The notes: generated by a model from the letters alone, not told the origin. DNA of 36,011 nucleotides from an uncultured bacterium (GCA_937928235.1 CALEZE010000008.1:1-36011), one strand, 5' to 3'. Shown: positions 15,463 to 35,316, numbered from the stretch's first letter. Program-made: numbers and translations.

Positions 15463-16435
15463 ATTTCCTGCAAGTCTCTAGCACTTTTTCCACAGCTTCC
15501 TCGTAAGGAGTGTTCTCAATCCTCGCCCCGGAAGCAGCAGCGTGCCCTCCTCCTCCTAACTCAATTGCAATTTTTGAAACATCGAAATTAGTACGCGATC
15601 TAAATGACACTGAAAGATTCTTTTCTTCCGTCTCAACCATTACTACCCCGAAATTTGTCCCCTCCACACTCTGAAAAAATTCACTGGCAAGTCTTTCTTT
15701 TGCATCAACGGGTTTACCAAATTTTTTGTAAAGTTCAAATGGTGCAGCCACCCAAACAAAAGAGTGTTCGTTTTCTATTTTTATTCTAGATAACATTTCA
15801 GCCCAAAACGCAACCAGTTTTTCTGAAACCGTAAAGTTGATATTTAAGTTTATCTTGTCTTTATCAGCTCCCTTCTCAAGCAAGTTTGCGGCAAGCCTTA
15901 GCGTTTCAGGTGTTGTGCCTGAATAACGAAAAGAGCCCGTGTCTCCAATTATGCCGGTCAACAGACTTGTCGCCACAGCTTCATCAATAGTCACCTCCCA
16001 GTCTTCGAAAACTCTGTAAAGAACCTCAGCTGCTGAGTTAACTTCCCAATCAACAAGGTTTGCGCTTCCATATTTCGTATTAGTTTTGTGGTGGTCTATA
16101 ACAACAATATCTATGTTCGGTTTCTTAATATCTTCTGAGGCGGCAACCATTCCCCAACTGGCAGAATCTATACAGATAAATAAGTCATGTTGAGAAAAAT
16201 CGTATTTTTCAAAATCTACAGTCTCTATGGCTTCGAAGTTTTTCAAAAAACTCAAATTCTCACTCGCCCCTGTCGGGCAGATAACTGCCACATCTTTCCC
16301 CATTGTCCGCAACACCGAATACATGGCAAGGGCCGACCCTACAGAGTCCGGGTCAGGATTCCTGTGACAATTCACAAGAATTCTGTCGGCGCTTTGGACT
16401 TTGCTAAGAATTTCCTCGGACTCTTTATAATTCAT
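15452..16435 (-). CDS. nrnA: DHH/DHHA1 family phosphoesterase (NrnA-like oligoribonuclease / pAp phosphatase)
   Basis: HRNPDPDSVGSALA (DxD), VVIDHHKTN (DHH) and GGGGHAAASGA (DHHA1 GGGH) motifs. 11-nt overlaps with both flanking GT-C genes. Confidence 0.75.
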   Translation of the reverse strand: MNYKESEEILSKVQSADRILVNCHRNPDPDSVGSALAMYSVLRTMGKDVAVICPTGASENLSFLKNFEAIETVDFEKYDFSQHDLFICIDSASWGMVAASEDIKKPNIDIVVIDHHKTNTKYGSANLVDWEVNSAAEVLYRVFEDWEVTIDEAVATSLLTGIIGDTGSFRYSGTTPETLRLAANLLEKGADKDKINLNINFTVSEKLVAFWAEMLSRIKIENEHSFVWVAAPFELYKKFGKPVDAKERLASEFFQSVEGTNFGVVMVETEEKNLSVSFRSRTNFDVSKIAIELGGGGHAAASGARIENTPYEEAVEKVLETCRKYAK

Positions 16436-18014
16436 CGTTGTGTACTAATTTAAACAGGGTAATACCTGCAACTTCCCACTCCTCATCAATCTTACTCCAT
16501 CCAAAGTTGGCTATTTCGGCTTTGGGGTTACTTGTCGGCTGACACTTGTCTTTCGGGAGTTCGCAAATCACAAAAAGCTGCTCTGTTATTGTCTCGTCTG
16601 CCCTTTGTGCATCAATACCCACAATCGGGGCTCCATCCTTTTCCAAAAAGTACCAATATGCACCTTCATAATTTCTTTCCGCAATAACTGCAATATTAAA
16701 AGGTTCGCCGCCCGCCTCTTTGGTAATTTTTTCTGCCACCTCAATACTTCTTTGCATTTGTCTGTTTGGCGGCTCAAGTAGCGGGTTTTGTTTCAAGTTA
16801 AAAATGAAAAGCGCTGCCAAAACCAACCACACCACCATCTTTCCGGACTTACGCAAATTTTGCATTGCTCCATCAGCAAAACCTCCAATTAGCAAAAAAG
16901 GTGCAGCAAACATAAATCCATAATAGTGGTCGTATACTTGTTGTTTATATAACCCCAAACCAACAAGGCCTGTGGCAATCCAAAGCAATATTATCGTGTA
17001 ACCTGACACCTCGTTTTCTTTCAGCCTGTACCTGTTTAAAAGAAAGAAAAGTGAGGGTATTGATAAAACTGCCAGAACCCAACCTCCAACCTTTTCATCC
17101 CTTGCTCCAACCAACCTGGTTGACACCTCCTCGGCTATCTCTGGAAGTTTGGGTAAAGCATTCCAGGGTCTAGCTGAAACAGTTGTCTGCCTTTTTACAA
17201 AGAAATCGCGCATTGCAGAGAAGTTTCTCCAACCATGACGGGCATCAAAGATCACCAGCGGAGACATCATTAGGGCAAATAGACCAGCTGAAACCAGCGT
17301 GTACTTTATGAACCGAGGTCTAAAAGTTTCTGATTTCTTGTTTTTTATGTAAGTTATGAGCCAGTAAAACCCAAGGAGCGGTGCGAGAAGAAGCCCTAAG
17401 TAATGCGACTGCAGTGTCGCGGCAAAAGAGATTACTGCAACGATAAGCCATTTTAGTTCATTCTTGTGCCACATTCTCCAAATAGCATACACACTCAAAA
17501 GTGCAAAAAAGGGCATGATGTTGGGGTTCCAAGAAGACCGGGAATAAACAATAACTGTGGGAGAGACAGCAAAAAGTGCCGAAGCCACAACGGCTGCCAC
17601 TTTCCCAAACCATTCTCTAGCAACGAACCAAACAAAAAACACAGTTGCGACACCCAAAAGGGCAATAAAAATTGCAGGGCCCGCCGGTGAATAGTTCGCG
17701 AAATACAAGGCAGGAGCTATTAAATAGTAGTACAAAGGCCCAAGATACATGTTTCCAATGGAAGTCCCTGGACCAACCAGTATTGGGTCAAAATTAACAA
17801 GGAGTCTCCTTACGACAATAACATCCCTTCCCTCATCTCCAAGAAATGTCAAATACTCATCAATCCTGAATAACCTTAAAAATGCTGCCAAAAGCAAGAT
17901 GGCGACAAGAATTAAAAACTCCCGAGGGTTTGCCTTAACCCAAACTACAATTTTGTTAGCCCAAAAACGCTCTTTTAAGGTTTCCTTATAATTTTTTAGT
18001 TTCTTTTTGCTCAT
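16425..18014 (-). CDS. ArnT/PMT_2-like GT-C membrane glycosyltransferase
   Basis: RLFRIDEYLTFLGDEGRDVIVVRRLL first-loop motif, more than 10 TM helices and a soluble C-terminal domain ending ...EEWEVAGITLFKLVHNDEL. ATGA overlap with the upstream DPM1-like GT2. Confidence 0.7.
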   Translation of the reverse strand: MSKKKLKNYKETLKERFWANKIVVWVKANPREFLILVAILLLAAFLRLFRIDEYLTFLGDEGRDVIVVRRLLVNFDPILVGPGTSIGNMYLGPLYYYLIAPALYFANYSPAGPAIFIALLGVATVFFVWFVAREWFGKVAAVVASALFAVSPTVIVYSRSSWNPNIMPFFALLSVYAIWRMWHKNELKWLIVAVISFAATLQSHYLGLLLAPLLGFYWLITYIKNKKSETFRPRFIKYTLVSAGLFALMMSPLVIFDARHGWRNFSAMRDFFVKRQTTVSARPWNALPKLPEIAEEVSTRLVGARDEKVGGWVLAVLSIPSLFFLLNRYRLKENEVSGYTIILLWIATGLVGLGLYKQQVYDHYYGFMFAAPFLLIGGFADGAMQNLRKSGKMVVWLVLAALFIFNLKQNPLLEPPNRQMQRSIEVAEKITKEAGGEPFNIAVIAERNYEGAYWYFLEKDGAPIVGIDAQRADETITEQLFVICELPKDKCQPTSNPKAEIANFGWSKIDEEWEVAGITLFKLVHNDEL

Positions 18015-18736
18015 TTCAAATTATTCCAAGGTCTTGTGTTCAAAAGTCTGAAAAGCCCCTCTATATCGCCCCATGCTGTCTTTGCTACCTTTACAGTAGA
18101 TGCAGGGTCGTCTCGCCACACAATTGGCACCTCTTCAATTTTAAACCCAGCTTTGTCTGCGATAATCAAAAGTTCCGAATCAAAAAACCAACCATCGTCT
18201 TTTACTTCTGGCAAGAGTTTGTCGGCAGCCTTTTTTGTTATCGCTTTAAAACCACACTGCGCATCTCGAAAACTTGTCCAGAAAAGTGACCTAAAAAGAA
18301 AACTGTAGCCCCTAGACATTATCTCTCTTAGAATGGTCCTTCCGTAAACCTTCGCACCAGGTGCCAACCTTGAACCAATTGCAATGTCTGACCCATTCTC
18401 TAACTCCTCAATAAGTTTTGGGAAATATTTCAAATCGCTCGACAAATCAACATCCATGTAGGCCAGGTATTTCGCTTTTGCCTTCTTCCAGGCACGCTTT
18501 AGCGCCCTGCCTCGCCCTTTTTTGGCTAATCTAATATAACTAATATTTTTACTGCGAGACAATTTTTTCCCAATTGAAGGAGTTTTGTCTGTCGAGGCAT
18601 TGTCCAAAATCACTATCTCCCAATCATAGTTTGACATGTTTTTTTTCAAAAATTCCCTTACTTTTGGAACATTTACGGGTAGGTCCGCTTCTTCGTTGTA
18701 AACGGGTATTACAACGGCCAATCCTGCTTTTGTCAT
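18011..18736 (-). CDS. Polyprenyl-phosphate sugar synthase (DPM1 / ArnC-like GT2, soluble form)
   Basis: LAVVIPVYNEEADL...IVILDNASTDKT...YMDVDLSSD...DIAIGSR...RDAQCGFKAI...DSELLIIADKAGFKIEEVPIVW. I prefer the ATG at 18736..18734 (MTKAG...). The track starts at the TTG at 18742. Confidence 0.75.
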   Translation of the reverse strand: MTKAGLAVVIPVYNEEADLPVNVPKVREFLKKNMSNYDWEIVILDNASTDKTPSIGKKLSRSKNISYIRLAKKGRGRALKRAWKKAKAKYLAYMDVDLSSDLKYFPKLIEELENGSDIAIGSRLAPGAKVYGRTILREIMSRGYSFLFRSLFWTSFRDAQCGFKAITKKAADKLLPEVKDDGWFFDSELLIIADKAGFKIEEVPIVWRDDPASTVKVAKTAWGDIEGLFRLLNTRPWNNLK

Positions 18737-18742
18737 GCCCAA

Positions 18743-18776
18743 AGTCTAGCACAAATCGGCTGAGCCATGGTAATAT
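18743..18776. promoter_or_regulatory. Divergent pair of TGn-extended -10 boxes serving 18011..18736 (-) and 18784..19944 (+)
   Basis: Plus strand: TG-G-TAATAT (18768..18776), then TTGGGCA, then the ATG at 18784. Minus strand: TG-C-TAGACT (18751..18743), then TTGGGC, then the ATG at 18736. The -35 matches are poor, and no Shine-Dalgarno can fit. Confidence 0.35.
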
Positions 18777-18783
18777 TTGGGCA

Positions 18784-19944
18784 ATGTCAAAAAGGTTTAG
18801 CGGGCTCGTGCCGATAATTCTACTGTCTTTGGTGCCGACACTTCTTATTTGGTTGCCATTTTTGTTGAGACTCGAGTCTTTTTGGACTATACCTCTGCCA
18901 ACAGCCGGAATGGCCACAATCGTTGCAAACTACGACGGACCGCTTTATTTGGTTGTTGCAAAAACTCTCTACAAGGCAGACCTTATTAAAAGCATGTTTC
19001 AGTTCACCCTACCAACCGAATACTACGCTGCACATTTCCCACTTTTTCCACTATTGATAAAACTATTCGCACCACTTTTCGGACATATATATTCCATGCT
19101 CCTTGTAAGCATCTCCTCTTCCGTTTTGGCGCTTTATTTCTTTTTCAAACTCGCTGCAGACACCGTCAACAAGAAAAGCGCACTGTGGCTCACAACCATC
19201 TTTGCTCTTCTTCCGGCTCGTTGGTTGATTGTTCGCTCAGTGGGTTCTGCCGAGCCTTTGTTTATCGCGAGCATTATTGCATCCATATACTTTTTTAGAA
19301 AAAAGCAATATGTTTTTGCTGGAATCTGGGGTGCACTAGCACAACTCACAAAATCCCCCGGTATTCTTTTGTTTGTTGCTTATGCAGCTGCCATAGTCTT
19401 TCCACATCTTAGGTACCTTGCAACCCATTCGTTTTCGGGGTGGGTTGAAAAACTGCAACTGAAAAAAGTTTACCCACTACTTCTTATACCCTTGGCGTTA
19501 ATACTGCTTTTTGCCTTTTATGGTTACGCCATGGGTGACTTCTTTGCTTACTTTAATTCGGGAGACAACAGGCATATTTTCTTCCCCCCATTTACAATAT
19601 TTAATTACTCAGCACCTTGGGTGGGTACTTTTTGGCTGGAGGAAATCCTTTTCGTTTACCTGATAGGCGCCCTGGGCATTGCAAAACTATTTGAGCAGAA
19701 AAAAGAAATAATGGCATGGTTTGCTGGAATATTTTTTGCTTCCATTCTTTTTGTCGCACACCGAGACATCTTGCGATATGCACTACCTGTGGTTCCCTTT
19801 TTGATTATCGCCTTCGCAGACACATTAAACAAAAAGGCATTCAAATATGTTTTTGCTCTCATCGTTATTCCGAGCTATCTTTTTGCTCTCACTTACATTT
19901 CTCAAAATGTGATGCCAATTTCTAATTGGACTCCATTCCTCTGA
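18784..19944 (+). CDS. Polytopic membrane protein, PIG-V/GT-C-like mannosyltransferase family candidate
   Basis: Start moved to the internal ATG at 18784 (MSKRFSGLVPIILLSL...), because the first 70 track codons are antisense to the GT2 gene. ANYDGPLYLVVAKTLY resembles the YDG..Y..IA..GY motif of PIG-V-like/DUF2029-type GT-C proteins. About 10 TM helices. Confidence 0.45.
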   Translation: MSKRFSGLVPIILLSLVPTLLIWLPFLLRLESFWTIPLPTAGMATIVANYDGPLYLVVAKTLYKADLIKSMFQFTLPTEYYAAHFPLFPLLIKLFAPLFGHIYSMLLVSISSSVLALYFFFKLAADTVNKKSALWLTTIFALLPARWLIVRSVGSAEPLFIASIIASIYFFRKKQYVFAGIWGALAQLTKSPGILLFVAYAAAIVFPHLRYLATHSFSGWVEKLQLKKVYPLLLIPLALILLFAFYGYAMGDFFAYFNSGDNRHIFFPPFTIFNYSAPWVGTFWLEEILFVYLIGALGIAKLFEQKKEIMAWFAGIFFASILFVAHRDILRYALPVVPFLIIAFADTLNKKAFKYVFALIVIPSYLFALTYISQNVMPISNWTPFL

Positions 19945-21385: not shown

Positions 21386-22540
21386 TTATTTTTTTCTACT
21401 GAAGATTTTGGGTAACTTCCAGGTCTTCCAGATTACAACATTAGCCATGATGTAGTTGTATGGAAAAACTATGAAGAGCACTATAACTGCCAAAACCAAA
21501 TAATCGTACTCCGCCCCGAAAATCCTAACACCAAGTGGTCCAAGAATAGACTGTATTATCAAGGCTCCGGCAGAAGTTAAGTTGAACTGGAAGAACTTAT
21601 TTATATGCGCTTTGACACCCGAGATTTTCTCGGCCTTAAAAGTCCAAATATTGTTGAAAATGTAGTTGTTGGCAATTGCAAGCTCAGTTGCAAAGAGCCA
21701 AGTTAAAACCTCGGCAAGCCCGATCCCTCTAAAAATTCTAATAAAGGCAAAGTTAACCAAAAAACCAGCAAAGCCAACTATTCCGAACTTAATTATCTTA
21801 ATCTTGTCCATAATTCCTAAATATGTTGCCACTTTGTAACTTGCAATCATTTCCTTGAAGTTAAACTTACTTTTTTCCTCTGTTCGGGGACGAAACTCAA
21901 GAGGAACTTCTACCGTTTTTTTTGAAAGCTTTAGTGTTCTGTAAAAAAGATCCATCTTGTAAGCAAAGCGTTTAAGTTCCATCAAACTTTCAAGTTTTAT
22001 CTTTTCAAGTACTCCCTTTACTCTAGTTAGTCTGAAACCCGTAGTAACATCGTGAATCTTAAAATTAAGCCAAACAAGACGGATATATAAGTTGCCAAAA
22101 TAGCTTACAAATTTGCGAGTGAATGCCCATTCTTCGGGAACTGATCCTCCATCAACATACCTGCTTCCAACAACATAATCCGCTCCGTCCAGGTACGCCT
22201 CTATCATCGGTTTAACAAATCTAGGGGGGTGTTGTCCATCCGCATCCATTTCCATAACGGCATCAGCGTTTAGTTTTTTGATTGCGTGGTTAATACCTGC
22301 GACATACGCCCAACCAAGACCAGACTTGCTGCCCTGTTGAATTATGTGCACTTTGGAGTTGGTTTTTGCCGCTTTTTCGACAATTTCGGTTGTGCCATCT
22401 GTGGAATTATTGTCCACCACAAGAAGTTCGACATCGACACCTTTTATGTCAGGGAAGACTTCCTTCGTCAAAGTCCCGACCATCTTTTCGATGTTTTTTG
22501 CCTCATTCCAAGCAGGCATTACTATTACGACTTTGTCCAT
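21386..22540 (-). CDS. Polyprenyl-phosphate sugar synthase (DPM1/GtrB-like GT2) fused to a C-terminal GtrA-like 4-TM domain
   Basis: VVIVMPAWNEAKNI...LLVVDNNSTDGT...MDADGQHPP...YVVGSRY for the GT2 part. The C-terminal FGIVGFAGFLVNFAFIRIF...NNYIFNNIWTF... is typical of the GtrA family. Confidence 0.7.
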   Translation of the reverse strand: MDKVVIVMPAWNEAKNIEKMVGTLTKEVFPDIKGVDVELLVVDNNSTDGTTEIVEKAAKTNSKVHIIQQGSKSGLGWAYVAGINHAIKKLNADAVMEMDADGQHPPRFVKPMIEAYLDGADYVVGSRYVDGGSVPEEWAFTRKFVSYFGNLYIRLVWLNFKIHDVTTGFRLTRVKGVLEKIKLESLMELKRFAYKMDLFYRTLKLSKKTVEVPLEFRPRTEEKSKFNFKEMIASYKVATYLGIMDKIKIIKFGIVGFAGFLVNFAFIRIFRGIGLAEVLTWLFATELAIANNYIFNNIWTFKAEKISGVKAHINKFFQFNLTSAGALIIQSILGPLGVRIFGAEYDYLVLAVIVLFIVFPYNYIMANVVIWKTWKLPKIFSRKK

Positions 22541-24013: not shown

Positions 24014-24142
24014 TTGCAGAATTTAAGCGCCTTTAACTCTTTAGTTTTTGGAATATTGATACTCTTGTTTCCTAAATCCCTAAACTACCTAATAGCTATA
24101 TACCTAATTCTAGCCGGCCTTTTCGGATTGGGGATTATTTAA
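24014..24142 (+). CDS. Small (42 aa) two-helix membrane protein, DUF3096-like
   Basis: Below the track cutoff. TTG start preceded by AAGGAAAGGGGGTGAG. Translation is (M)QNLSAFNSLVFGILILLFPKSLNYLIAIYLILAGLFGLGII*, matching the ...GILILIFPK.LNY..AIYLI..G... pattern I associate with DUF3096. Its 3' end overlaps the rmlD stop by 8 nt. Confidence 0.45.
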   Translation: MQNLSAFNSLVFGILILLFPKSLNYLIAIYLILAGLFGLGII

Positions 24143-25028
24143 GAGAGGATACAAAATCGTTAACAGCTTCTTGCCAGCTTCTGAATTTTGCGTCTAATTT
24201 TTCCTCCGTTATGGTTGTATCAAGACCGCCAAGACGAGGTCTGGGTGTCCGACCAGGGGCCATTAGAAATTCCTCCATAGACCCTTTCTCCACTTCAACC
24301 TCATTTCCTGTATACTTTTGCAAAAGATAGCTCGCAAATGCATGTGGAGTGGTAACTCCCGGGTTAACTACATGGTAAACCCCTGGCTGAGCAAGTTCTG
24401 CCATTTTAATTAACATATCAATCTGATCCTCTAGGTAGGTAACAGTTAACTTTTGATCCGTAAACATGGGGTACAGTTTCCCTTCCTCATACAACGAAAT
24501 AATCCCGTGTGCGTAGTCTTTCTTTGCCTCAAAATCTTTTGATCTAAAAGGATAGGCGGTTCTCACAATTGCAAATTCCCCATCAATCTCATGTAAAGCA
24601 ACCTCTGCGCGATTTTTGGTCCACCCGTACCAACCTAAGCCATCTGGGTTTTCTGGCAGGATAGCGTCCTCTACATATGGCCCAGGCTCTGATTCCGTTC
24701 CCTTAAAAACAAAGTCTGTGGATATATGAATCAAAAATTTGCCGTATTTTTTGCTGGCCTCTGCCAAATTTCTTGGACCCTCAACATTAACTCTCCAAAC
24801 TAAACCTTCTTCGTCCCCTCTTTCTTTTTCTGCTGCATCGACATTCGTAAAAGCTGCGTAGTTGAGAACAGTATCGAAACTGTCTCCTTTTTCTTCAAAA
24901 AACCTCAATACTCGTTCTCTATTTGTTATATCTAAGGCTTTCTCATCTACTCCTAGTGAATTTGGGACTGCGTCCATAAAAGTCGTTCCCATCAACCCAC
25001 TTGCGCCAACTACTAAAAACTTTTTCAT
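24135..25028 (-). CDS. rmlD: dTDP-4-dehydrorhamnose reductase-like SDR
   Basis: VVGASGLMGTTF Rossmann start, STDFVF and YGWTKNRAE (YxxxK). ATGA overlap with the upstream rmlC. Confidence 0.7.
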   Translation of the reverse strand: MKKFLVVGASGLMGTTFMDAVPNSLGVDEKALDITNRERVLRFFEEKGDSFDTVLNYAAFTNVDAAEKERGDEEGLVWRVNVEGPRNLAEASKKYGKFLIHISTDFVFKGTESEPGPYVEDAILPENPDGLGWYGWTKNRAEVALHEIDGEFAIVRTAYPFRSKDFEAKKDYAHGIISLYEEGKLYPMFTDQKLTVTYLEDQIDMLIKMAELAQPGVYHVVNPGVTTPHAFASYLLQKYTGNEVEVEKGSMEEFLMAPGRTPRPRLGGLDTTITEEKLDAKFRSWQEAVNDFVSSLK

Positions 25029-25597
25029 TTGTCTTTGAAGTGTTCTGGATAAAGGTCTCTCATTGAAGGATTGTTTCTGTCTCTCTCAGAAATTATTGGT
25101 TTATCAACTGGCCAATCTATTGCCAAATCTGGGTCATCCCAAGCGATACCTTGCGCCTTTGCATCATCCCAGTACTCATCTACCAGATATAGATAATGGA
25201 GGTCGTTTTCACCCAAAGCGCAAATGGAATTGCCCATTCCAGCGGGGAGAAAAATTGCTTGATGTGGAGAATCTGGAGCATCAGCGTCCAAAGTAAATGT
25301 TTCAATTTTCCCAAAAGTCTCACTTCCTGGGCGTACATCTACAATGGGTGCAAAAAGCTTTCCAGTAACAGGGTAGATCAACTTATTCCAATTCTCCGTG
25401 TGAACCGCTCTAATAACACCAGGATGACTCATTGAGTGGCTCCACTGAACAGGTTTAAAATCTATCCCAGAAGCTTCCTTCAGTTCATTCAAACGAAATA
25501 CTTCGTGGAAAAAGCCACGGTTGTCCGGGTAGGTGGGGCGCTCAATAATTAGAACTCCGGGAATTGAAGTTTCGCGAATTACCGTATCTGACGCCAT
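25025..25597 (-). CDS. rmlC: dTDP-4-dehydrorhamnose 3,5-epimerase (cupin)
   Basis: IPGVLIIERPTYPDNRGFFHEVFR...GVIRAVHTE...QAIFLPAGMGNS...YLVDEYWD are RmlC hallmarks. Confidence 0.8.
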   Translation of the reverse strand: MASDTVIRETSIPGVLIIERPTYPDNRGFFHEVFRLNELKEASGIDFKPVQWSHSMSHPGVIRAVHTENWNKLIYPVTGKLFAPIVDVRPGSETFGKIETFTLDADAPDSPHQAIFLPAGMGNSICALGENDLHYLYLVDEYWDDAKAQGIAWDDPDLAIDWPVDKPIISERDRNNPSMRDLYPEHFKDK

Positions 25598-25615: not shown

Positions 25616-27508
25616 TTAAAGTTTGATATCAGTTATACCGCCAAGCGTAAGTCTGGTTAATGCTGAAAGGAAATAAGCATCGTCCATCCTATTAATAATT
25701 TCGCCCAATCTGTCAACAGGCCATAAAACAATCCCCTCTGGAGTTTCATAGTCTTCCCCAACATTAAGAGGTGGGAAAATTTTGTCCGCAACATCAACTA
25801 CGATTGCATAGAGGAATGGGTGGTTATTAGTCATACCAGGGTCTGGCATTACTCTCCCCAGTCCAATTATTTCTCCAACCTTCATAGATTCGTTACCCTC
25901 ATGAATACCAAGTTCTTCCTCCAACTTTCTTGTAATAAGTTCGAATATCGATTCGTTTAGCTTTGGGAAACCTCCAACAATGTCGTACACCTTGGCGCCA
26001 ACCGGGAACTTATCGTTCTTAATTAAAGCCAAGTGTGTAATTTCTCCTTTGTGTCTGAGAAGAACCAAGAGCTTGGCACCAGATTTTGGCCCCATACCCC
26101 AAGAGTAAAACCCTTCAACCCATTTCTTCTTGTCTTTTTCTACCAGAAACCAGGATGCAACTCCGTAAATCCGATACTTCTTGGGAGCATGTTCTAGTTT
26201 TGCCAACTTCAACTGTTTAACACCGCCTATCTCATCTGGCCTGTTGGCAATGTCCTCAACGAATCCGTGAGTTCGGGGGTTTTCCGCCATTTCCTGCAAC
26301 TTTTCACGAATAGCTTTGCTGGAATTTTTGAACCACTTTCTTGTTTTTAGTTTTTCTCTAACAGACTTAAGTTTCCCAGTTTCCTCAATCATTTTTTCTT
26401 CTAACGGCCCTGTGTCTTTTTCACCCTCTTTTTCAGCATTTTTATAAGAAATCTTCACCTTGCCTGTTTCTCGATCTAAAGACATAAATGCGTAAACCTT
26501 TTTCCCGCCATTCGAAAGTGGAGCGCGCCGGGTGAGTAGAGGTCTCCACCAGTCCTCATGTTTTCTATACCAATCAATGGTGTCTTCCAGTCCTTCGTCA
26601 AAGTTTTCTCTCGAGACTTGGGGTTTCCAACCTAATTCTTTGACTATTTTTGTGGAGTCAATAGCGTACCGCCTGTCATTACTGTGTCTGTCCGGAACAT
26701 ACTTTATCCAGCTTTCGTCTTTACCGTAAAGCTCAACCACCTTTTCGGCAATCACCCTATTTGGAACATCGTTGTCGGAACCAACCAGGTATGTCTCGCC
26801 TTTTACACCTTTTTCCAGAATAAGATCAACTGCCCTCGCGTGATCTTCCGTGTGAATCCAGTCTCGCACATGTTGTCCGTCTCCATGAACCGGAACTTTG
26901 TAACCATCAATTAAGTTTGTGACAACAATCGGCACAAATTTTTCTGGGAACTGATAGGGGCCATAGTTGTTTGAACAGTTAGAGATGGTTATATGCATCT
27001 CGGGATTTTTTTCGGCAAATTCTCTAACAAACCTATCTGCTTCAGCCTTTGAAATGGCGTACAAATTGTCAGGGCGGGGGGCATATGGGGTTCTTTCGCT
27101 AAACCTTTCTTTTGAGTCCAGTGTCAGCTCACCATAAACCTCGTCTGTTGAAACATGATGGAACCTAGGGACCTTGGCTTTCTTGGCTTCCTCAAGAAGA
27201 ACCTTTGTGCCCTTAACATTAGTGCTCCAAAAGGTTGCGGGGTCAAAAATACTTCTGTCCACATGGCTCTCGGCTGCGAAGTGAACCACAATGTCGATAC
27301 CCTTCATGGCGTTTTTGACATCTTCTCTGTTTCTGATGTCTCCCTCTACAAACTCTATCTTTTTCATCACATCTTTGAGGTTGTCCAGGTTCCCAGCAAA
27401 AGTGAGGGCATCTAAAACTCTTATCTTGTCTTTAGGATGATTTTTGAGCCAGTAATAAACGAAGTTAGAACCAATAAAGCCGGCTCCACCTGTAATTAAA
27501 ATCTTCAT
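25616..27508 (-). CDS. rmlB: dTDP-glucose 4,6-dehydratase (residues ~1-325) fused to a ~300-aa extension ending in a Nudix hydrolase domain
   Basis: N-terminal half: ILITGGAGFIGSNF, HVSTDEVYG and YAISKAEAD (RmlB signatures). C-terminal half: residues 513-535, GFPKLNESIFELITRKLEEELGI (nt 25904..25972), fit the Nudix box Gx5Ex7REUxEExGU with only RE replaced by RK. PDPGMTNNHPFLYA follows, as in ADP-ribose/NDP-sugar pyrophosphatases. Lys/Glu-rich linker; single uninterrupted 630-codon frame. Confidence 0.75.
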   Translation of the reverse strand: MKILITGGAGFIGSNFVYYWLKNHPKDKIRVLDALTFAGNLDNLKDVMKKIEFVEGDIRNREDVKNAMKGIDIVVHFAAESHVDRSIFDPATFWSTNVKGTKVLLEEAKKAKVPRFHHVSTDEVYGELTLDSKERFSERTPYAPRPDNLYAISKAEADRFVREFAEKNPEMHITISNCSNNYGPYQFPEKFVPIVVTNLIDGYKVPVHGDGQHVRDWIHTEDHARAVDLILEKGVKGETYLVGSDNDVPNRVIAEKVVELYGKDESWIKYVPDRHSNDRRYAIDSTKIVKELGWKPQVSRENFDEGLEDTIDWYRKHEDWWRPLLTRRAPLSNGGKKVYAFMSLDRETGKVKISYKNAEKEGEKDTGPLEEKMIEETGKLKSVREKLKTRKWFKNSSKAIREKLQEMAENPRTHGFVEDIANRPDEIGGVKQLKLAKLEHAPKKYRIYGVASWFLVEKDKKKWVEGFYSWGMGPKSGAKLLVLLRHKGEITHLALIKNDKFPVGAKVYDIVGGFPKLNESIFELITRKLEEELGIHEGNESMKVGEIIGLGRVMPDPGMTNNHPFLYAIVVDVADKIFPPLNVGEDYETPEGIVLWPVDRLGEIINRMDDAYFLSALTRLTLGGITDIKL

Positions 27509-27632: not shown

Positions 27633-28151
27633 TTAGGCATGTTTGTCGGCTACTGAGGATGCTCCCCAGCTTTCAGGCTTTGTTTTCGCAGTATAGCCAT
27701 TTCCGTTGACCATTCCAACAACCTCTTTAATCATCTCTCTTGTTGGGCCAAGGGCACCCACATCAATATGGATTTCAAGATCATATTTAGCAGCACTCAC
27801 AGCCCGTCTTAGTTGTGGAACAATTTGCTCAGCTAGCGCCAAAGACATCTGTGTTTCTGTGTATATTTTATCTCTCAAGATTGGTTTCTTGATGGTTCTA
27901 ATTTTTCTCCAAAAATACTTTGCTCCATAACCTTTTCTGTGAACAATGACGGCGGTTACAAAATCAATCTCCGCCTTTCCGTTTAGGCCTCTAGTTTGCG
28001 AATCAGTGCCAATGACAAGCCTGTAAAAACTGCTTGGCTCTTTCTCTACAAAAGCAGAAATCCCGGCTATCATTTCCGGGATTGTAACTTTTCCCTTAGT
28101 GGGACTTATAAATGTATCTTGTGTCTTCACCGGCTGGATTATATCACGCAA
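27633..28151 (-). CDS. YkuK/DUF458-family RNase H-fold protein (function unknown)
   Basis: FISPTKGKVTIPEMIAGISAFV...YRLVIGTDSQ...DFVTAVIVHRKGYGAKYFW follows the YkuK pattern (..iGtDSq...fvtaiv.hr.gkGa.yf). TTG start at 28151 with GAGGG 9 nt upstream. Confidence 0.55.
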   Translation of the reverse strand: MRDIIQPVKTQDTFISPTKGKVTIPEMIAGISAFVEKEPSSFYRLVIGTDSQTRGLNGKAEIDFVTAVIVHRKGYGAKYFWRKIRTIKKPILRDKIYTETQMSLALAEQIVPQLRRAVSAAKYDLEIHIDVGALGPTREMIKEVVGMVNGNGYTAKTKPESWGASSVADKHA

Positions 28152-28182: not shown

Positions 28183-29088
28183 TTAGTTTTCCTCTTGAGC
28201 TGCCAGAAGTTCTGTGAGGTACTTTCTAAATTCACCATTAACTCCTTTGTGTTTTAGTGCAAATTCTACAACCGTCTTTAGATATTCCAGCTTGTTTCCG
28301 GTGTCATAATACTTGCCTCCCTTGACCTCTATTGCTTTTATCTCTTTCCCGTCTTCCAACATCAGTTTTAATGCATCGTTGTAATAAAGCTCATCACCCT
28401 CCTCAAGTTTTTCGTAAGCCGTATCTATGTATTTAAAAATATCGGGAGTAAAGAGGGATGCTGAAACCGTCGCTAAATCAGAAGGTGCGTTCTCTTTCCC
28501 TGGTTTTTCTATAATCGTGTCAACATCAATAACTCCTTCCTCAACTTCTTTCCCACTTGCAAAACCGTATCTATCATAATCCTCATCCGCTCGGGCCCTA
28601 ACTCCACCCAAACAAGTTACGCCATACTTTTCGTATGCGTCGACCAGCTGCTTAAAGCGGCTGGGTTGTGCAACAATGAAGTCGTCGCTAAAAGTGTAAA
28701 TGAAAGGCTCGTCTCCAACCAAGTGTTTTACATTAAGCATTGGGGTGCCATTGCCGTACGGGCCTTTTTGCCTAACATAGACAAAGTTCGCCATATTGGA
28801 AATTTTTTCTACTTCTTCAAGAAGGGGTTTTTTCTTCTCTCCACCCATTTTCAGATTTTCAATGAGGTCGAGGTTGGGAGCATCGAAGTGGTCTTCTATG
28901 GTTCTCTTGTGATAGCCCGTAACCATAATAATTTCCTCAATTCCGGCACCCACTAGTTCCTCGACAATGTATTGGATAATCGGCTTATCAACAATGGGGA
29001 GCATCTCTTTAGGCATAGCTTTGGTTTGGGGAAGAAACCTTGTACCAAAACCAGCTGCTGGAACTACTGCTTTTCTTACTTTAGCCAT
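28183..29088 (-). CDS. galU: UTP--glucose-1-phosphate uridylyltransferase
   Basis: KAVVPAAGFGTRFLPQTKAMPKEMLPIVDKPIIQYIVEE, the canonical GalU N-terminus. 301 aa. Confidence 0.85.
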   Translation of the reverse strand: MAKVRKAVVPAAGFGTRFLPQTKAMPKEMLPIVDKPIIQYIVEELVGAGIEEIIMVTGYHKRTIEDHFDAPNLDLIENLKMGGEKKKPLLEEVEKISNMANFVYVRQKGPYGNGTPMLNVKHLVGDEPFIYTFSDDFIVAQPSRFKQLVDAYEKYGVTCLGGVRARADEDYDRYGFASGKEVEEGVIDVDTIIEKPGKENAPSDLATVSASLFTPDIFKYIDTAYEKLEEGDELYYNDALKLMLEDGKEIKAIEVKGGKYYDTGNKLEYLKTVVEFALKHKGVNGEFRKYLTELLAAQEEN

Positions 29089-29158: not shown

Positions 29159-29419
29159 TTAAGTCCTAAAAATCAAAGAAAGCGCTACAAGTAAACCAAG
29201 TGCTGCAATTAATACATATTCGATAACAACCGCAGTTTCTAAGTCCCCATGAATTTTGTGGTGAACTATGCCCCACACAACATAGGAAACAGCAACCCCT
29301 ATCGCTATCGCGGCCTGGAAAAGTCTGTCATAGGAAAAAAGCCAAAATCCGACAAACCCAAAGATCAGAATTCCCATAAGACTAAAATAGTGAGGAAAAT
29401 GTCTTGAAATGTGTTTCAT
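29159..29419 (-). CDS. Small 3-TM membrane protein (hypothetical)
   Basis: 86 aa with three hydrophobic helices and a His-rich loop (VHHKIHGD). Its start shares one nt with the stop of the CAP-domain gene. Confidence 0.4.
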   Translation of the reverse strand: MKHISRHFPHYFSLMGILIFGFVGFWLFSYDRLFQAAIAIGVAVSYVVWGIVHHKIHGDLETAVVIEYVLIAALGLLVALSLIFRT

Positions 29420-30354
29420 TAAAGTATTTGTCCTGCCTTTAAAATTATCGCCAAAGTTATAATCATCCCCAAAAATGATAGGTGGGCAAAGGTCCTTCCT
29501 CCAATTCTTCTTATGCGGCGTCTAGAAACAAGTGCTGCATCAACTATCATTATTACAAAAAGTAAACCAACCACTGCAAGAGACACGCCTTTTGTTGTTG
29601 TGAACGGTGAAACCAAGACTTGCCCTTCAACAGTACCTATGGCGGTAACTGGCGAGGGCTCTGCCTGTGCAACTTCGGGTGCTTCCACAGGCTGTGGTGT
29701 AGGTTCTAATGTTGGTTGTGGAATTTCCGGAACTACTTCTTCAATGGGTGGCACCTGAGCAACTGCTTGTGGGATGGTATCTGCATATCTCGTTCCAAAG
29801 AACTGAACTATTATTGTTGTGTCTACCCCCGCCAGATTTCCTTCAACCACTCCGATACCTATCTCGTCATATTTGTCGGAAAGCATGTTGTCACGGTGTG
29901 TGGGAGACGCCATCCAAGCTTCAACCGCCGCAGAAGGGTTGGAAAAGTCGCGTGCCAAGTTTTCTCCTGCATAGTGATAACGGTACCCCGCGTTTAAGAA
30001 AAAGGCCCAGGGCTGGGTTCCGTCCGGTGCTACATGTGCCCAGTACCCTTTTGTTAACATGTCAGCCCCTTTGGCTTGGGCTGCTTGAGAAAGGGTAGAA
30101 TTTTCCTCCAACGGATTAAGACCAGCGTCTATTCTTTTCTGATTAGTTAGCGCAACCACCTCTGTCGGAGAAATGTTCGCCGCATATCCAAGCACGCGCC
30201 CCATTGGTGTCGTAGTCACGACATACAAACCAACCTGGACCGCGACCAAAAGAATCTTTAGAGCAACAAGAGATGTTGGATGAAGAATCTTTGCCCGGTG
30301 ATTATTGCTCTCATGGGGAATAAAAAAATGTCTAATTGTGGCAAGCAGGCTCAT
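29419..30354 (-). CDS. Membrane-anchored CAP/SCP/PR-1 (YkwD-like) domain protein with a Pro-rich linker and C-terminal TM helices
   Basis: NQKRIDAGLNPL...LSQAAQAKGADML...GYWAH...AGENLA...AVEAWMASPTHRDNML...IGIGV are CAP-domain motifs. N-terminal TM helix and a PQPTLEPTPQPVEAPEVAQAEP linker. Confidence 0.65.
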   Translation of the reverse strand: MSLLATIRHFFIPHESNNHRAKILHPTSLVALKILLVAVQVGLYVVTTTPMGRVLGYAANISPTEVVALTNQKRIDAGLNPLEENSTLSQAAQAKGADMLTKGYWAHVAPDGTQPWAFFLNAGYRYHYAGENLARDFSNPSAAVEAWMASPTHRDNMLSDKYDEIGIGVVEGNLAGVDTTIIVQFFGTRYADTIPQAVAQVPPIEEVVPEIPQPTLEPTPQPVEAPEVAQAEPSPVTAIGTVEGQVLVSPFTTTKGVSLAVVGLLFVIMIVDAALVSRRRIRRIGGRTFAHLSFLGMIITLAIILKAGQIL

Positions 30355-30411: not shown

Positions 30412-32772
30412 TTATTTATTTCTTCGGCCTTTCAGTAAAACCAAGAAAATAGTCGTTCCAGCTAGTAAAACAGTGACCCATACCCAACTTTTCGATCGAG
30501 AGCCGTCTGAATCCACAGACATCTCAACGCCTTCATTTTCGTCTTCAGCTTGAGTCTCTTCTCCCAAGACTTCACCGCCACCTTCGTCTTCACTAGCCTC
30601 CACTAGCGTAGGTGATAGAAAAGTTAACAGCGGCTCCAAAAACAAATCCACAGAAGTGGAAATCCCAGCAACAGCACCACCTCCTGTTGACGAAGGTGCT
30701 CCGGCATAGGTCAGTGTCTTAAAAGTTTTCTCAAAACCAACGGCTATGGGTGAACCTTCAGAGATCGTTCTGAAATAATAAAGTGTTCCATCAGAAAGAC
30801 CAGTAATAATCACTGTATGGTTAGTTGTCTTTACTAAGGAGTCAAAGGTAGATGTGGAAAAAGCATATCCGTAGTTCGGTGCCGAACCCAACGCTGATTG
30901 TGAAACTGTGTCGTAAACAACACGACTTGAAGTTGGCTTGTCCGTTGTCCAAGTTATCACAGCAGTTGTTTGGCTAGGCGTTGCCGAAAGCTCTCCTGAA
31001 ACAACCGCTGCCAAGTCAACACTTACCTCTGTAGATGTAAATTCGTTCCCCGCACCATCAGTTACAATAATCCGTAAAATGTATGTGTCCAGGTCTAGAC
31101 TCGAAGTGTCCCAATTTGCAGAAAACGGACTCGTCAACGAAGTTTCTATGTCGTGGAATGTGTCAACACCGTCGTCTCTTTTATATTGAAAAAGAACGGA
31201 GGAAACACCGCTTAGGCTGTCACTTGCATCAGCAGTGACTACAACAAAACCAGAGACTGTTTCGCCACCAGAATGAGAGGTTATCGAGCCGGTTGGAGCT
31301 GTTGTATCCACAACGAAAGGCCCAGAATGAACAGTGGATGTCCAGTTGCCAGCATTGTCTACAGTCCTTAGGTGGAAATACCATGTGCCATCCGTTAAAG
31401 AAGTACTGGTGATACCTGTTGCAGTCTCCTCCAAATCTTTTGTGTTATCAGGAACATCAGTCGCACCATTCGAAAATTCGTATGAGTACCCGTCAACACC
31501 AGAAGTTGCATCAGTTGCTCCGGGGATTGAACCTGCCACTGTCCATACCATATCTATCGTTGTGTCGTTTTTGGGGGCCGTATGGCTTGTAGTGCTCACA
31601 TCTGTTGGGTCGGTGGGAAAAGTTTCATCAAGAACAATAGTATCGCTAATAATTCCCTCGCTTTGATTCCCTGCCCCATCGGTAAATCGTACACTTACTG
31701 TATATTCACCATCACCATTTTCTGGAAGCGTGTAGGCATATGGGGTTACATAGGTTATTGGGGACTGAAAACTTCCGACCATTCCGTTTCTCAACTCCAT
31801 AGTCACAACATCGCTTGATGTACCAGGGAAACTTAAAGATACGCTTCTTGAGTTTGTATAGGTCGCCCCTGAGTCGATAGAAATTGAACCTACCGGTTTT
31901 TCTGTATCTCCCACCGAAACCACCAAACTTCCGTTTCCAGACTGAGCACTAGACCCTGACTGACAGCCGCTGGGTGTTGCAGTGACCGTAAAATTAGATG
32001 ACCCTGTGGGCGTTGTACTACTCGTGCTTAAAGTTAGAGTTGAAGAGACATTTCCACCCGTGCTAACTAGCGAGGCCGGAGAAAAAGATACGACACCAAC
32101 ACCTGTTGGCAGCCCGCTTGCACTTAAGTTGGCAGTACAAGAGTTGCTATTACCATTGAAATTAACGGTCACATTAAAAGTTACATTTTGACCTTTCTCA
32201 ACAGGATTGGGGTTTTGAGTATTTACGGTAACAGTATTTGGTTTTGAATCTAGAAAGGTAGTCGTGGCAACTAAACTGCCGCTTTGGTCAAATAGTTGAA
32301 CTAAATAATTAGGCCTGTATGTGCCATCCAGTTGGTACGCGTAAACAAACCCACCCAGGTTATCTGTTTGTATACTAATGGAACTAGTAACCGCAGGTTC
32401 GTCAGCCGAACTAATAACTAATAAGTATTGGTAATTAGGGCTAAGGTTTTTAGAAGAAATAATTACAATCTCTGTTGGGTAATAGTCTTCTTTGTCGGTG
32501 GTTAGACTAACGACTTCCTGCGTGTCCTCGGCTATATTTTCGGTGACTGGAGAGGTTGTGGAAGCAAGAGCAAGATCGGGTTCTGTTACAACAAATACTA
32601 AAACTTTTTCCTCTGCCACCAGGGGCAATGTTTCTTCATCAACTGTTTCGTGAACTTCCTCCTCGTTTTCGGAGGTAAGCTCTACTTCTTGAGCAAGAAC
32701 TAGGACCGGAAAAACATTCGTCTGGATTAGGAGAAGAATTACAGAAAGAACGCTAAGGGCCTTCCTGAACAT
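30412..32772 (-). CDS. Large secreted Ser/Thr-rich surface protein with Ig-like/FN3-like repeats and a C-terminal TM anchor
   Basis: Signal peptide MFRKALSVLSVILLLIQTNVFPVLVLAQE. Repeated beta-rich modules (e.g. GVDGYSYEFS...WYFHLRTVDNAGNW; TAVITWTTDKPTSSRVVY...TLYYFRTIS). The C-terminal WVWVTVLLAGTTIFLVLLKGRRNK is a TM helix plus basic tail with no LPXTG. Confidence 0.6.
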   Translation of the reverse strand: MFRKALSVLSVILLLIQTNVFPVLVLAQEVELTSENEEEVHETVDEETLPLVAEEKVLVFVVTEPDLALASTTSPVTENIAEDTQEVVSLTTDKEDYYPTEIVIISSKNLSPNYQYLLVISSADEPAVTSSISIQTDNLGGFVYAYQLDGTYRPNYLVQLFDQSGSLVATTTFLDSKPNTVTVNTQNPNPVEKGQNVTFNVTVNFNGNSNSCTANLSASGLPTGVGVVSFSPASLVSTGGNVSSTLTLSTSSTTPTGSSNFTVTATPSGCQSGSSAQSGNGSLVVSVGDTEKPVGSISIDSGATYTNSRSVSLSFPGTSSDVVTMELRNGMVGSFQSPITYVTPYAYTLPENGDGEYTVSVRFTDGAGNQSEGIISDTIVLDETFPTDPTDVSTTSHTAPKNDTTIDMVWTVAGSIPGATDATSGVDGYSYEFSNGATDVPDNTKDLEETATGITSTSLTDGTWYFHLRTVDNAGNWTSTVHSGPFVVDTTAPTGSITSHSGGETVSGFVVVTADASDSLSGVSSVLFQYKRDDGVDTFHDIETSLTSPFSANWDTSSLDLDTYILRIIVTDGAGNEFTSTEVSVDLAAVVSGELSATPSQTTAVITWTTDKPTSSRVVYDTVSQSALGSAPNYGYAFSTSTFDSLVKTTNHTVIITGLSDGTLYYFRTISEGSPIAVGFEKTFKTLTYAGAPSSTGGGAVAGISTSVDLFLEPLLTFLSPTLVEASEDEGGGEVLGEETQAEDENEGVEMSVDSDGSRSKSWVWVTVLLAGTTIFLVLLKGRRNK

Positions 32773-34021: not shown

Positions 34022-34336
34022 CTATTTGTCCGAATCGTATTTTATTTTTGTTACAAAATTCTGAGAAATTTTCTTACCATTAACAGGAATTTGCAAACTC
34101 CATCCCAGGGCATTTGCCACAGAAACCCCGACACGCAAACCCGTATAAGAACCAGGACCTGTGTTTACTTCTATTTCTGTTAGATCTTTAAGAGTTTTAC
34201 CCTTGTCCGAAAGGAGTTTATCTATAAAAGGAAGGAGTTTTTGAGATTTCTCTTTTCTTGCGTCCGCTTCGAAGCGCTCACCATCCAGTGCCACAACAAC
34301 TTTTTCAGAATCCGATGTGTCAATAAAGAGTTTCAT
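34022..34336 (-). CDS. tsaB: Minimal TsaB (YeaZ) homolog, N-terminal ASKHA subdomain only (104 aa)
   Basis: [17 protein letters not shown]...LLPFIDKLL...LTEIEVNTGPGSYTGLRVGVSVANALGWSLQIPV matches the first ~100 residues of TsaB. Start moved to the ATG at 34336, giving an ATGA overlap with the galE stop; the track ORF starts at 34369. Confidence 0.6.
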   Translation of the reverse strand: MKLFIDTSDSEKVVVALDGERFEADARKEKSQKLLPFIDKLLSDKGKTLKDLTEIEVNTGPGSYTGLRVGVSVANALGWSLQIPVNGKKISQNFVTKIKYDSDK

Positions 34337-35316
34337 TTGTCGTACCCATTGGGGTGGCTTTGGTGCCACTTGTAGGCAGACTCAATAATTTCCTTTAATC
34401 CGTATTTTGGTTCCCAACCAAGGGCGCTTTTAATTTTATCTATTGAAGCATATAGGGCATCGGCATCTCCTTCTCTCCTGGGGCCATATTTTACTTTAAA
34501 ATCACTCCCTGTAACTTCTTTTATCATATCTATCACTTCCTTGTTGGAATAACCCCTACCTATACCAACATTGTAATAATCGCTATCTCCTCCACTAATA
34601 AGTTTATCGAGCGCTAGAGTGTGTGTTTCTGCCAAATCTAGTACATGGAAATAGTCTCTTACATTAGTGCCATCCGGGGTGCCATAGTCTTCCCCAAAAA
34701 CTTCGAATTCTTTGCCAGTCAGTGCCGCCTCCATAGCATTGGGAATAAGGTGGCTCTCTTCTGGGTGTGCTTCACCAATCGAACCATCAAGGGCCGCTCC
34801 CGCTGCATTAAAGTAGCGAATGGCCGTGAACTTTATTCCATGACTCTTGTCGAACCAATCAAGCATTCTTTCCCCCATATATTTGGTTTCCCCGTATGGG
34901 TTTAAGGGGTTTCTTGGCATATCTTCTGTTATTGGTAGATTTTCGGGATTGCCGTAAACTCCAGCTGAAGATGAGAACACGATATTGTTAACACCTTTTT
35001 CGACCATTACTTCTAACAGGTTGATTGTTGAAGCTAAGTTGTTCTTGAAGTACTTCAGAGGATTCTTAAAACTCTCACCCATTTGAATGAACGCTGCCAT
35101 GTGGATAACACCATCGAACTTTTCATTTTCAAAAAGTTCAGAGAGCTTCTCTTTTTCCAAAAGGTCAAAAACACGAAGATCAAATCCCTCAATGGCTTCT
35201 TTGTGTCCTTGCGAAAGATTGTCCACTATTACAACTTCGTGCCCTTTGTCTTTTAAATTTCTGACAATAAAGCTCCCAATATATCCCGCACCTCCGGTTA
35301 CAAGTATTTTGCTCAT
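34333..35316 (-). CDS. galE: UDP-glucose 4-epimerase
   Basis: [16 protein letters not shown]...[11 protein letters not shown]...FSSSAGVYG...YGETKYMGE...IRYFNAAGA are GalE signatures. Confidence 0.85.

Follow-up and report, generated by a model that had tools for sequence, protein, structure and literature searches.

A contig of 36,011 nucleotides from an uncultured bacterium (GCA_937928235.1, CALEZE010000008.1; the window, meaning this whole stretch) encodes a dTDP-glucose 4,6-dehydratase, RmlB, which carries at its C-terminus an additional module with a predicted Nudix fold. The fused RmlB–Nudix protein is the standard RmlB of a whole Woesebacteria lineage, so the architecture is not rare, and the source organism of the window is itself an ultra-small, Woesebacteria-type bacterium. 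Judged by its sequence, the module descends from free-standing Nudix proteins of about 250 amino acids (aa) with a canonical catalytic ExxEE. Among the fused proteins, substrate-contact loops of the ADP-ribose pyrophosphatase (ADPRase) type are almost invariant and the Mg2+-binding glutamates are eroded, and we tentatively read the module, on conservation, structural models and analogy, as a catalytically impaired domain that may bind nucleotide-sugars or have a regulatory role. Sensing or retaining a sugar nucleotide is a more likely role for this extra domain than degrading one.

What is new is an architecture that is conserved across a Woesebacteria lineage and invisible to Pfam and NCBIfam, together with its source Nudix subfamily and the graded loss of the catalytic box. 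Already known are both superfamilies, the coupling of Nudix proteins to pathways with nucleoside-diphosphate-sugar (NDP-sugar) dehydratases (gmd-fcl-gmm) and the existence of degenerate fused Nudix domains (TRPM2).

As had been predicted from the DNA alone, positions 25616 to 27508 hold a single open reading frame (ORF) of 630 codons, running from ATG to stop on the minus strand; the strand was missing from that original prediction, and the plus-strand translation of the interval is riddled with stops. The RmlB signatures claimed for residues 1-325 are present (GGAGFIGS at 7-14, STDEVYG at 120-126 and YAISK at 150-154), and the catalytic and NAD-binding residues G7-G10-G13, T121-D122-E123, Y150 and K154 are invariant across 64 homologues. 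Profile searches matched RmlB strongly and NUDIX below threshold. The NCBIfam model TIGR01181 scored 400.2 bits against a curated equivalog cutoff of 365.1, with residues 2-324 aligned end to end with model positions 1-321, and the Pfam matches to this half were GDP_Man_Dehyd (PF16363, E=6e-66) and Epimerase (PF01370, E=1.5e-61). In a full-length AlphaFold2 model, the predicted local distance difference test score (pLDDT) of the RmlB half is mostly above 90. On these signatures, residues 1-325 are a bona fide, intact dTDP-glucose 4,6-dehydratase and the dehydratase of the operon. The product of RmlB is dTDP-4-keto-6-deoxyglucose.

Reality and distribution of the fusion

A search of 5.8 billion clustered proteins returned at least 119 full-length homologues of 628-684 aa with 57-72% identity, which come from NCBI, JGI, ENA and Logan assemblies and cover 99-100% of the query, except P0070 at 90%. 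Those with names are called 'dTDP-glucose 4,6-dehydratase' or 'hypothetical protein' and belong to Woesebacteria or Microgenomates, and a precomputed NUDIX domain annotation is found on none of the 119. A scan of one genome per GTDB species, in which exact peptide patterns were used and which therefore gives a lower bound, located at least 22 loci, including the complete chromosomes CP066686.1 and CP011214.1. The RmlB part runs into the Nudix part in one frame in every one of these 22 species genomes, 20 of which have an uninterrupted single ORF of 629-644 aa; the others are L013, with one ORF of 993 aa owing to an intein, and L010, with two contiguous tblastn matches.

The in-frame fusion proposed in the original prediction is thus genuine, being found in 119 clusters and 22 species genomes. 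An artefact, either an assembly chimera or a two-gene read-through caused by sequencing error, has a negligible probability: the C-terminal part is a separate ORF in two database entries (P0127 and P0122), but both are themselves frameshifted copies, and against them stand 119 independent full-length clusters, the species genomes with their two complete chromosomes, and a ratio of nonsynonymous to synonymous substitution rates (dN/dS) of 0.04-0.09. A chimera is refuted because independent assemblies carry the fusion, and in these assemblies the ORF is not split by a stop or frameshift. P0127 and P0122 were considered as true split C-terminal genes beside rmlB and rejected, the RmlB tail (…WYKxNxDWWRPLL) continuing in the downstream frame.

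In two public metagenome contigs (L001, 4800-5130, and L002, 1600-1960), the fusion is split into two called genes by frameshifts, the break in L002 lying within a T-rich tract. These splits are likely sequencing errors or pseudogenes, which yield misleading 'stand-alone' C-terminal proteins in databases.

The labels of the 22 loci are Woesebacteria, Microgenomates or Patescibacteria, apart from one 'bacterium' and some third party annotation (TPA) entries. The latter are six metagenome-assembled genomes (L012, L013, L021, L024, L025 and L029) titled 'uncultured Gammaproteobacteria bacterium', in which the same Woesebacteria-type operon occurs, its Nudix module 45-55% and its RmlB part 67-79% identical; these taxonomic labels look wrong. 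In L013 (CAZIPM010000001.1, 1940-4921), RmlB::Nudix is interrupted by an intein-like insert of about 360 aa with the LAGLIDADG-type motifs LLGIFIGDGF and LMDSDGS, placed exactly between HHVS and the catalytic TDEVYG. The insert begins with Cys and ends with …CGN before Thr.

According to the original prediction, this architecture was not known to have been described. No paper describing an RmlB–Nudix fusion was found in the literature covered, coverage that was incomplete and hence gives no proof of absence, and no profile library names the C-terminal domain. The architecture proved not to be rare, being the standard form of the enzyme in its lineage, and it is annotated only as dehydratase or hypothetical protein.

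Fold, ancestry and catalytic box of the module

Two AlphaFold2 models were made, one of residues 326-630 from 21 family sequences (mean pLDDT 73, predicted TM-score (pTM) 0.62) and one of the full-length protein from 64 sequences (pLDDT 81, pTM 0.75), the latter having been suggested with the original prediction. A Lys/Glu-rich linker had been proposed to follow RmlB. It exists at residues 357-377, where K and E make up 48% against 19% protein-wide and conservation is poor, but residues 326-356 form a conserved beta-meander and residues 378-425 conserved helices that belong to the Nudix-type module. The meander has predicted strands at 329-332, 338-345 and 350-355 with invariant R346 and G349, and it is absent from free-standing relatives, whose matches begin at profile position ~55-60. 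The helices span 379-422 with pLDDT up to 94 and invariant W392 and G415, and this segment is also present in free-standing relatives. The N-terminal beta subdomain that comes next has three strands in the model (430-440, 449-458 and 461-470).

The C-terminal part does match a NUDIX profile, below threshold. Pfam NUDIX (PF00293) scores 15.8 bits (E=0.014) with the full protein, over residues 483-580, and 17.8 bits (E=0.0035) with residues 326-630, the gathering threshold being 21.1; we regard this sub-threshold match as real, and only 7 of 21 family members show it at E<=0.1. Beyond NUDIX there is no Pfam match at E<=10, and no entry of NCBIfam or Pfam names the module.

With the 326-630 model as query, Foldseek matched 142 PDB chains at E<=1e-3. 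Each of the best 50 is a Nudix protein, nearly always of the ADP-ribose/ADP-sugar/NDP-sugar pyrophosphatase type, and human NUDT5 is the top match (E=1e-8, probability 1.0). Others include E. coli NudE, NudF-type ADPRases, the Klebsiella ADP-ribose diphosphatase, the Bdellovibrio NDP-sugar hydrolase, the E. coli GDP-mannose hydrolase YffH/NudK and a Bacillus methanolicus Nudix hydrolase. The alignments extend over 199-224 columns and take in nearly the entire 167-206-aa targets, both N-terminal beta subdomain and core, with target-normalised TM-scores of 0.53-0.71. A profile of the wider family (A3), which includes the free-standing relatives, matches NUDT5 at E=3.3e-5, and in this alignment DxGMTNN falls on DPGLSN (MDPGLSNC). 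These results bear out the assignment of the C-terminal part to the NDP-sugar/ADP-ribose pyrophosphatase type and support the likeness that had been noted for PDPGMTNNHP. The profile of the fused family alone gives weak Nudix matches (NadM-Nudix, E=0.004; AraR Nudix-like regulator, E=0.005-0.03), and hhalign against E. coli NudF places the family loop on SPGGTSE at a marginal E=0.09, with the NudF loop Glu opposite N561. The only matches of the C-terminal part in a single-sequence PDB search, to cytochrome f (E=0.02-0.18), were spurious. By model and profile, the module is predicted to be of the ADP-sugar-pyrophosphatase type (NUDT5/NudF-like) of Nudix fold.

A word-index search with the C-terminal part alone found 12 proteins; the wider family emerged when the module profile was run exhaustively, as a hidden Markov model, against 1.84 billion representatives and recovered 143 proteins, ~100 of them at E<=1e-10. 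Of the 143, about 120 are free-standing relatives, mostly 240-300 aa long, which match the profile at ~55-305, that is, all but the beta-meander and linker. They occur in Paceibacteria, Dadabacteria and others, are mostly 'hypothetical' and have an absent or borderline Pfam NUDIX match. With the fused module they have in common the motifs SWxxGxxSGxKG, GGF and LGxxxDxGMTNNxPxLFA, and K479 is invariant in them too. Among the 50 that were aligned with the window module, the box glutamates at columns 528, 531 and 532 are present in at least 90%, at least 90% and 100%, respectively; since the free-standing relatives keep these three residues, the ancestor was a canonical Nudix enzyme. The search exposes an unannotated Nudix subfamily (SWxxGxxSGxKG … DxGMTNN), which current profile libraries miss. 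In this free-standing family (P0134-P0230; for example L006, 5001-5780), the box is RExxEE with an insertion of ~4 residues in the box helix. The neighbourhoods of six free-standing relatives (P0148, P0138, P0146, P0139, P0141 and P0133) are heterogeneous, so the ligand is not inferable from context. One of the six is encoded immediately upstream of an FdtA-like gene (dTDP-keto-sugar isomerase), and another ~4 kb from an epimerase.

Conservation was counted over 120 fused sequences. The original prediction had placed a Nudix box at residues 513-535, with the usual spacing and an intact catalytic EE pair. Position and spacing hold, but the Glu of RE is absent, the window box being GX5EX7RKLEEELGI with Lys in place of the Glu after Arg, and the EE pair, although present here, is not conserved in the family. 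G513, E519 and R527 occur in 120/120 sequences. Position 528, the Glu of RE, is Ser in 81, Lys in 26, Gln in 11, Asn in one and Leu in one, and Glu in 0/120. Position 531, the first Glu of EE, is Lys in 81, Glu in 19, Asp in 14 and Arg in two, plus others (Lys or Arg in 83/120). Position 532 is always acidic (Asp in 101, Glu in 19), and position 534 is G, N or D.

A neighbour-joining tree rooted on the free-standing relatives divides the fused sequences into two sister clades. The larger (B), with 81-82 sequences, has RSLKKD; the smaller (A), with ~38 sequences including the window protein (RKLEEE), has R[KQ]Lx[ED][ED], and its first acidic residue (531) was lost again, sporadically, in five members. 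The clades share operon context and constraint and differ at 531, from which it would follow that their common function needs no canonical two- or three-metal site. Canonical free-standing proteins, then RKLx[ED][ED], then RSLKKD form a natural series for studying the passage from Nudix enzyme to pseudoenzyme.

The loops are far more uniform. In the GPKSGAK loop, G473 and G477 are present in 120/120 sequences, K475 in 117, S476 in 119 and K479 in 116, and D556, G558, T560, N562 and P564 are present in all 120. The full set of positions with 95-100% conservation comprises K475, S476, G477, K479, G512-G513, E519-S520, G551-R552, D556, G558, T560, N561-N562, P564, Y567 and W596-P597. Residue 563 is His in 88% and Lys or Arg in 14/120 (12%), a substitution more in keeping with a phosphate-contacting cation than with a general base; E588 is acidic in 94%. 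Model confidence is lowest in the two loops that are most conserved (pLDDT<50 at 471-475 and 555-561), as would be expected in such a model of flexible loops that are ordered by a ligand. For close pairs, dN/dS (Nei-Gojobori) is 0.04-0.09 in the C-terminal half and 0.016-0.08 in the RmlB half, the former value indicating that the module is under strong purifying selection.

Function of the module

The retention of the loops together with the erosion of the metal-binding glutamates most likely means that ligand binding was kept and efficient canonical hydrolysis lost. The ORF encodes the working RmlB of the lineage with a module of ~300 aa appended C-terminally, and this module would bind an NDP-sugar-type ligand without efficient canonical hydrolysis of its pyrophosphate. 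Candidate ligands are a dTDP/UDP-sugar of the pathway, for example its end product dTDP-L-rhamnose, or an ADP-ribose-like molecule. The module may serve as a built-in sensor or regulator, or as a retainer of substrate or product, for the first committed step of rhamnose synthesis. Feedback on rhamnose synthesis is usually exerted by dTDP-rhamnose acting at RmlA; the operon has a GalU-like gene instead of RmlA, so feedback at that level may be absent, which would make control at RmlB plausible. A more specific version, in which a Nudix enzyme turned pseudoenzyme sensor confers on RmlB allosteric feedback by a pathway nucleotide-sugar and replaces feedback at RmlA, is conceivable but rather doubtful; if true, a Nudix pseudoenzyme would for the first time be shown to regulate a nucleotide-sugar enzyme, and the NUDT9-H domain of TRPM2 would have a bacterial parallel.

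In the ADPRase NUDT9, the Glu after Arg coordinates the catalytic Mg2+ and the mutants RILGEE and REFGKK are inactive; the C-terminal NUDT9-H domain of human TRPM2 (RILRQE) is inactive and still binds ADP-ribose, whereas those invertebrate TRPM2 domains that have a canonical box are active (PMC6461439). By analogy, the substitutions in the fused family appear equivalent to those that inactivate NUDT9 and human NUDT9-H. Among the three functions that the original prediction had suggested, the best fit is a Nudix domain that has come to serve as a sensor of nucleotide-sugars. Proofreading or drainage of the keto-sugar fits poorly, as it presupposes an intact hydrolase site, and the Glu after Arg is missing in 120/120 sequences and the first Glu of EE is Lys or Arg in 83/120.

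Some observations weigh against catalytic impairment. The window protein and its clade retain the acidic pair 531-532 (here E531-E532), other acidic residues that are possible catalysts are kept (D/E532 and D556 invariant, E588 acidic in 94%), and an active site would show near-invariant polar loop residues equally well. E. coli Gmm (NudD) is without the same two glutamates, yet it is an active GDP-sugar glycosyl hydrolase (box GX5EX7RLX2AEXGU), which yields GDP and sugar by a different mechanism (PMC5389931). An enzyme that is active through a non-canonical site is the main alternative, which we consider less likely. Such an enzyme might be a glycosyl hydrolase of the Gmm kind with a single metal (NDP-sugar to NDP and sugar) or a pyrophosphatase with alternative residues. 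By reducing the dTDP/UDP-sugar pool or removing a stray keto-sugar intermediate, in line with the drainage or flux control of the original prediction, it would recover scarce nucleotides in a cell of the candidate phyla radiation (CPR). In addition to the retained acidic residues, H563 (88%) is conserved, all of the closest structural neighbours hydrolyse NDP-sugars or ADP-ribose, the highly conserved loops of low pLDDT resemble mobile catalytic loops, and Gmm is encoded beside gmd, the gene for GDP-mannose 4,6-dehydratase. The Gmm box GGRVQKDETLEAAFERLTMAELGL and the position beside gmd and fcl were confirmed in the E. coli K-12 record, and the family consensus RSLKKDLxL follows the positional pattern of Gmm, with two Glu replaced and the last acidic residue kept, but the window protein retains E531.

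On the other side, proteins without the Glu after Arg in a survey of 78 Nudix structures are non-pyrophosphatases only (IDI, NUDT21 and NudD/Gmm), and surveyed pyrophosphohydrolase structures with listed variant boxes keep this Glu after R/K (PMC5389931). No sequence relationship of the module to Gmm is detectable: homology to the E. coli protein was tried and rejected, the hhalign match (probability 0.12, E=0.49) being restricted to the box region and not significant. Asn561 is aligned with the catalytic-loop Glu of NudF in the marginal alignment (E=0.09), although D556 or E588 could take the place of this Glu, Lys531 places a positive charge at the metal site in two thirds of the family, and H563 is replaced by K/R in 12%. 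Hydrolysis would also be a futile cycle unless regulated, since the partner enzyme consumes the same substrate. If such an enzyme were active, it would extend the small Gmm-like class of Nudix proteins that work with a depleted metal site.

A purely architectural module, which would itself bind no small molecule and would help to build a larger assembly or offer RmlC, RmlD or glycosyltransferases a place to dock, is improbable. Nudix proteins of the ADPRase type form domain-swapped dimers and RmlB is dimeric too, the beta-meander at 326-356 with its invariant R346 and G349 looks adaptor-like, the pTM of 0.75 for the full-length model suggests a defined arrangement of the domains, and the synteny of the operon is constant. 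However, near-invariance sits in the ligand-contact loops (GPKSGAK, GGFPxLNES and PDxGMTNNHP) and not on surfaces, and these loop motifs are common to free-standing relatives with a catalytic box.

A different reaction on the RmlB product is more improbable still. NDP-hexose 2,3-dehydratases such as EvaA belong to the Nudix superfamily and use exactly this product, dTDP-4-keto-6-deoxyglucose (PMC8987622), but the C-terminal part has no Hexose_dehydrat match and NUDIX as its sole Pfam match even at E<=10, the best 50 Foldseek matches are all ADPRase-type with no EvaA entry among them, EvaA has two Nudix domains, unlike the window module, and rmlC and rmlD follow directly, indicating ordinary rhamnose synthesis.

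These tiny, host-dependent bacteria make envelope glycans that contain rhamnose as one of their major products. A conserved and strongly selected module on the first committed enzyme is a concrete candidate for control of nucleotide-sugar flux in cells with minimal regulation and scarce nucleotides. The fusion is a real, conserved and cheaply testable feature rather than a categorical surprise, and its function is inferred; the module proteins being soluble and the ligands commercially available, it is an easily testable candidate.

Genomic setting and comparison with known systems

The features of the fused protein and of the surrounding window are listed in Table 1. The order conserved in related genomes is a CAP-domain protein, the GalU-like nucleotidyltransferase, an optional RNaseH-like protein (PF04308), rmlB::Nudix, rmlC and rmlD, beyond which lie trmD on the opposite strand and then GT2/GtrA. 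For rmlC and rmlD, the best NCBIfam matches are the expected models at scores under their cutoffs (TIGR01221, 122.5 bits against 155.75; TIGR01214, 154.7 bits against 224.05), and rmlC is syntenic in 19/22 genomes. The GalU-like gene, syntenic in 21/22, scores 267 bits with TIGR01099 (cutoff 326.8) and 39-95 bits with rmlA models, and there is no RmlA within the 36-kb window. With such a gene in a rhamnose operon, the pathway may use either dTDP-glucose or UDP-glucose.

Table 1. Coordinates of the RmlB–Nudix protein, its parts and neighbouring features in the window
Feature	Residues	Coordinates	Strand	Basis or remark
Whole ORF, RmlB with Nudix-type C-terminal module	1-630	25616..27508	minus	630 aa plus stop
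RmlB domain, dTDP-glucose 4,6-dehydratase, extended short-chain dehydrogenase/reductase (SDR)	1-325	26534..27508	minus	TIGR01181, PF16363, PF01370
Fusion-specific beta-meander, conserved LDRxxGK	326-356	26441..26533	minus	model and conservation
Disordered Lys/Glu-rich linker	357-377	26378..26440	minus	pLDDT<50 in both models
Conserved helical segment, part of Nudix-type module	378-425	26234..26377	minus	model and conservation
ADPRase-like N-terminal beta subdomain, including start of GxGPKSGAK loop	426-477	26078..26233	minus	model
GMGPKSGAK loop, near-invariant	471-479	26072..26098	minus	conservation
Nudix-fold core	478-630	25619..26077	minus	Pfam sub-threshold, Foldseek, profile match to NUDT5
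Degenerate Nudix box, GFPKLNESIFELITRKLEEELGI	513-535	25904..25972	minus	translation
PDPGMTNNHP loop, counterpart of NUDT5 'DPGLSN' and NudF 'SPGGTSE'	555-564	25817..25846	minus	alignments
rmlC, 18 nt downstream of rmlB::Nudix, same operon		25025..25597	minus	PF00908, E=5e-42
rmlD, overlaps rmlC stop		24135..25028	minus	PF04321; syntenic
GalU-like sugar-1-phosphate nucleotidyltransferase, upstream, in place of rmlA		28183..29088	minus	TIGR01099
RNaseH-like (PF04308) gene, 172 aa, between galU-like gene and rmlB		27633-28151	minus	
Second extended-SDR epimerase/dehydratase, 327 aa, upstream		34333-35316	minus	
PMT_2/ArnT-like membrane glycosyltransferase paralogues, three		11603-13159, 14029-15462, 16425-18014	minus	
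Wzx-type flippase		8330-9829	minus	
GT2-GtrA fusion		21386-22540	minus	
LD-carboxypeptidase		373-1350	minus	

The RNaseH-like gene is found at this spot in only ~6/22 related genomes and is a variable insertion in an otherwise fixed operon. The CAP-domain protein (29419-30354, minus strand) has a C-terminal hydrophobic tail and shows synteny with the rml operon in almost every related genome; adjoining it is a 786-aa protein with Ig-like (Big_13) and purple-acid-phosphatase N-terminal domains (30412-32772, minus strand). Related loci have an RmlB-like SDR, ~22-25% identical, at the place upstream of the CAP gene that is equivalent to that of the second SDR here, and it is not a second RmlB. 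Positions 373-23315 form a dense envelope-glycan cluster on the minus strand with at least nine GT2 and GT1 glycosyltransferases. A putative 456-aa ORF with a TTG start and no Pfam match (18574-19944, plus strand) overlaps the start of the GT2 gene at 18011-18742.

With characterised RmlB/RfbB, the window protein shares GxxGxxG, TDE and YxxxK as well as the position of its gene directly upstream of rmlC and rmlD. Characterised RmlB stops at ~330-360 aa, whereas the window RmlB extends 305 residues further, and the usual RmlA is represented in its operon by a GalU-like nucleotidyltransferase. NUDT5, NudF/AspP, NudE, NudK/YffH and the Bdellovibrio NDP-sugar hydrolase have the G-x5-E-x7-R spacing and the D-x-G-[ML]-[TS]-N loop in common with the module. 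Compared with ADP-sugar pyrophosphatases, all fused modules lack the Glu after Arg and most lack the first Glu of EE; the module differs further in its additional helical segment and in being joined to a second enzyme.

The Nudix protein Gmm/NudD/WcaH of the E. coli colanic-acid cluster likewise has a genetic link to an NDP-sugar 4,6-dehydratase pathway, but it is a separate protein of 159 aa that has no ADPRase-type N-terminal subdomain and acts on GDP-sugars. NrtR, Bacteroides AraR and NadM-Nudix are precedents for a Nudix domain that binds an effector or is fused to an enzyme of nucleotide metabolism; NrtR and AraR differ in having a winged-helix DNA-binding domain and NadM-Nudix in having an NMN adenylyltransferase, and their similarity to the module is marginal. 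EvaA differs in its two tandem Nudix-like domains and its place in dideoxysugar pathways. The NUDT9-H domain of TRPM2 is alike in being an ADPRase-type Nudix domain at the C-terminus of a protein with another function and in its pattern of glutamate loss; it differs in being eukaryotic, in its ion-channel partner and in its ligand, ADP-ribose, and its homology to the module is at the superfamily level only.

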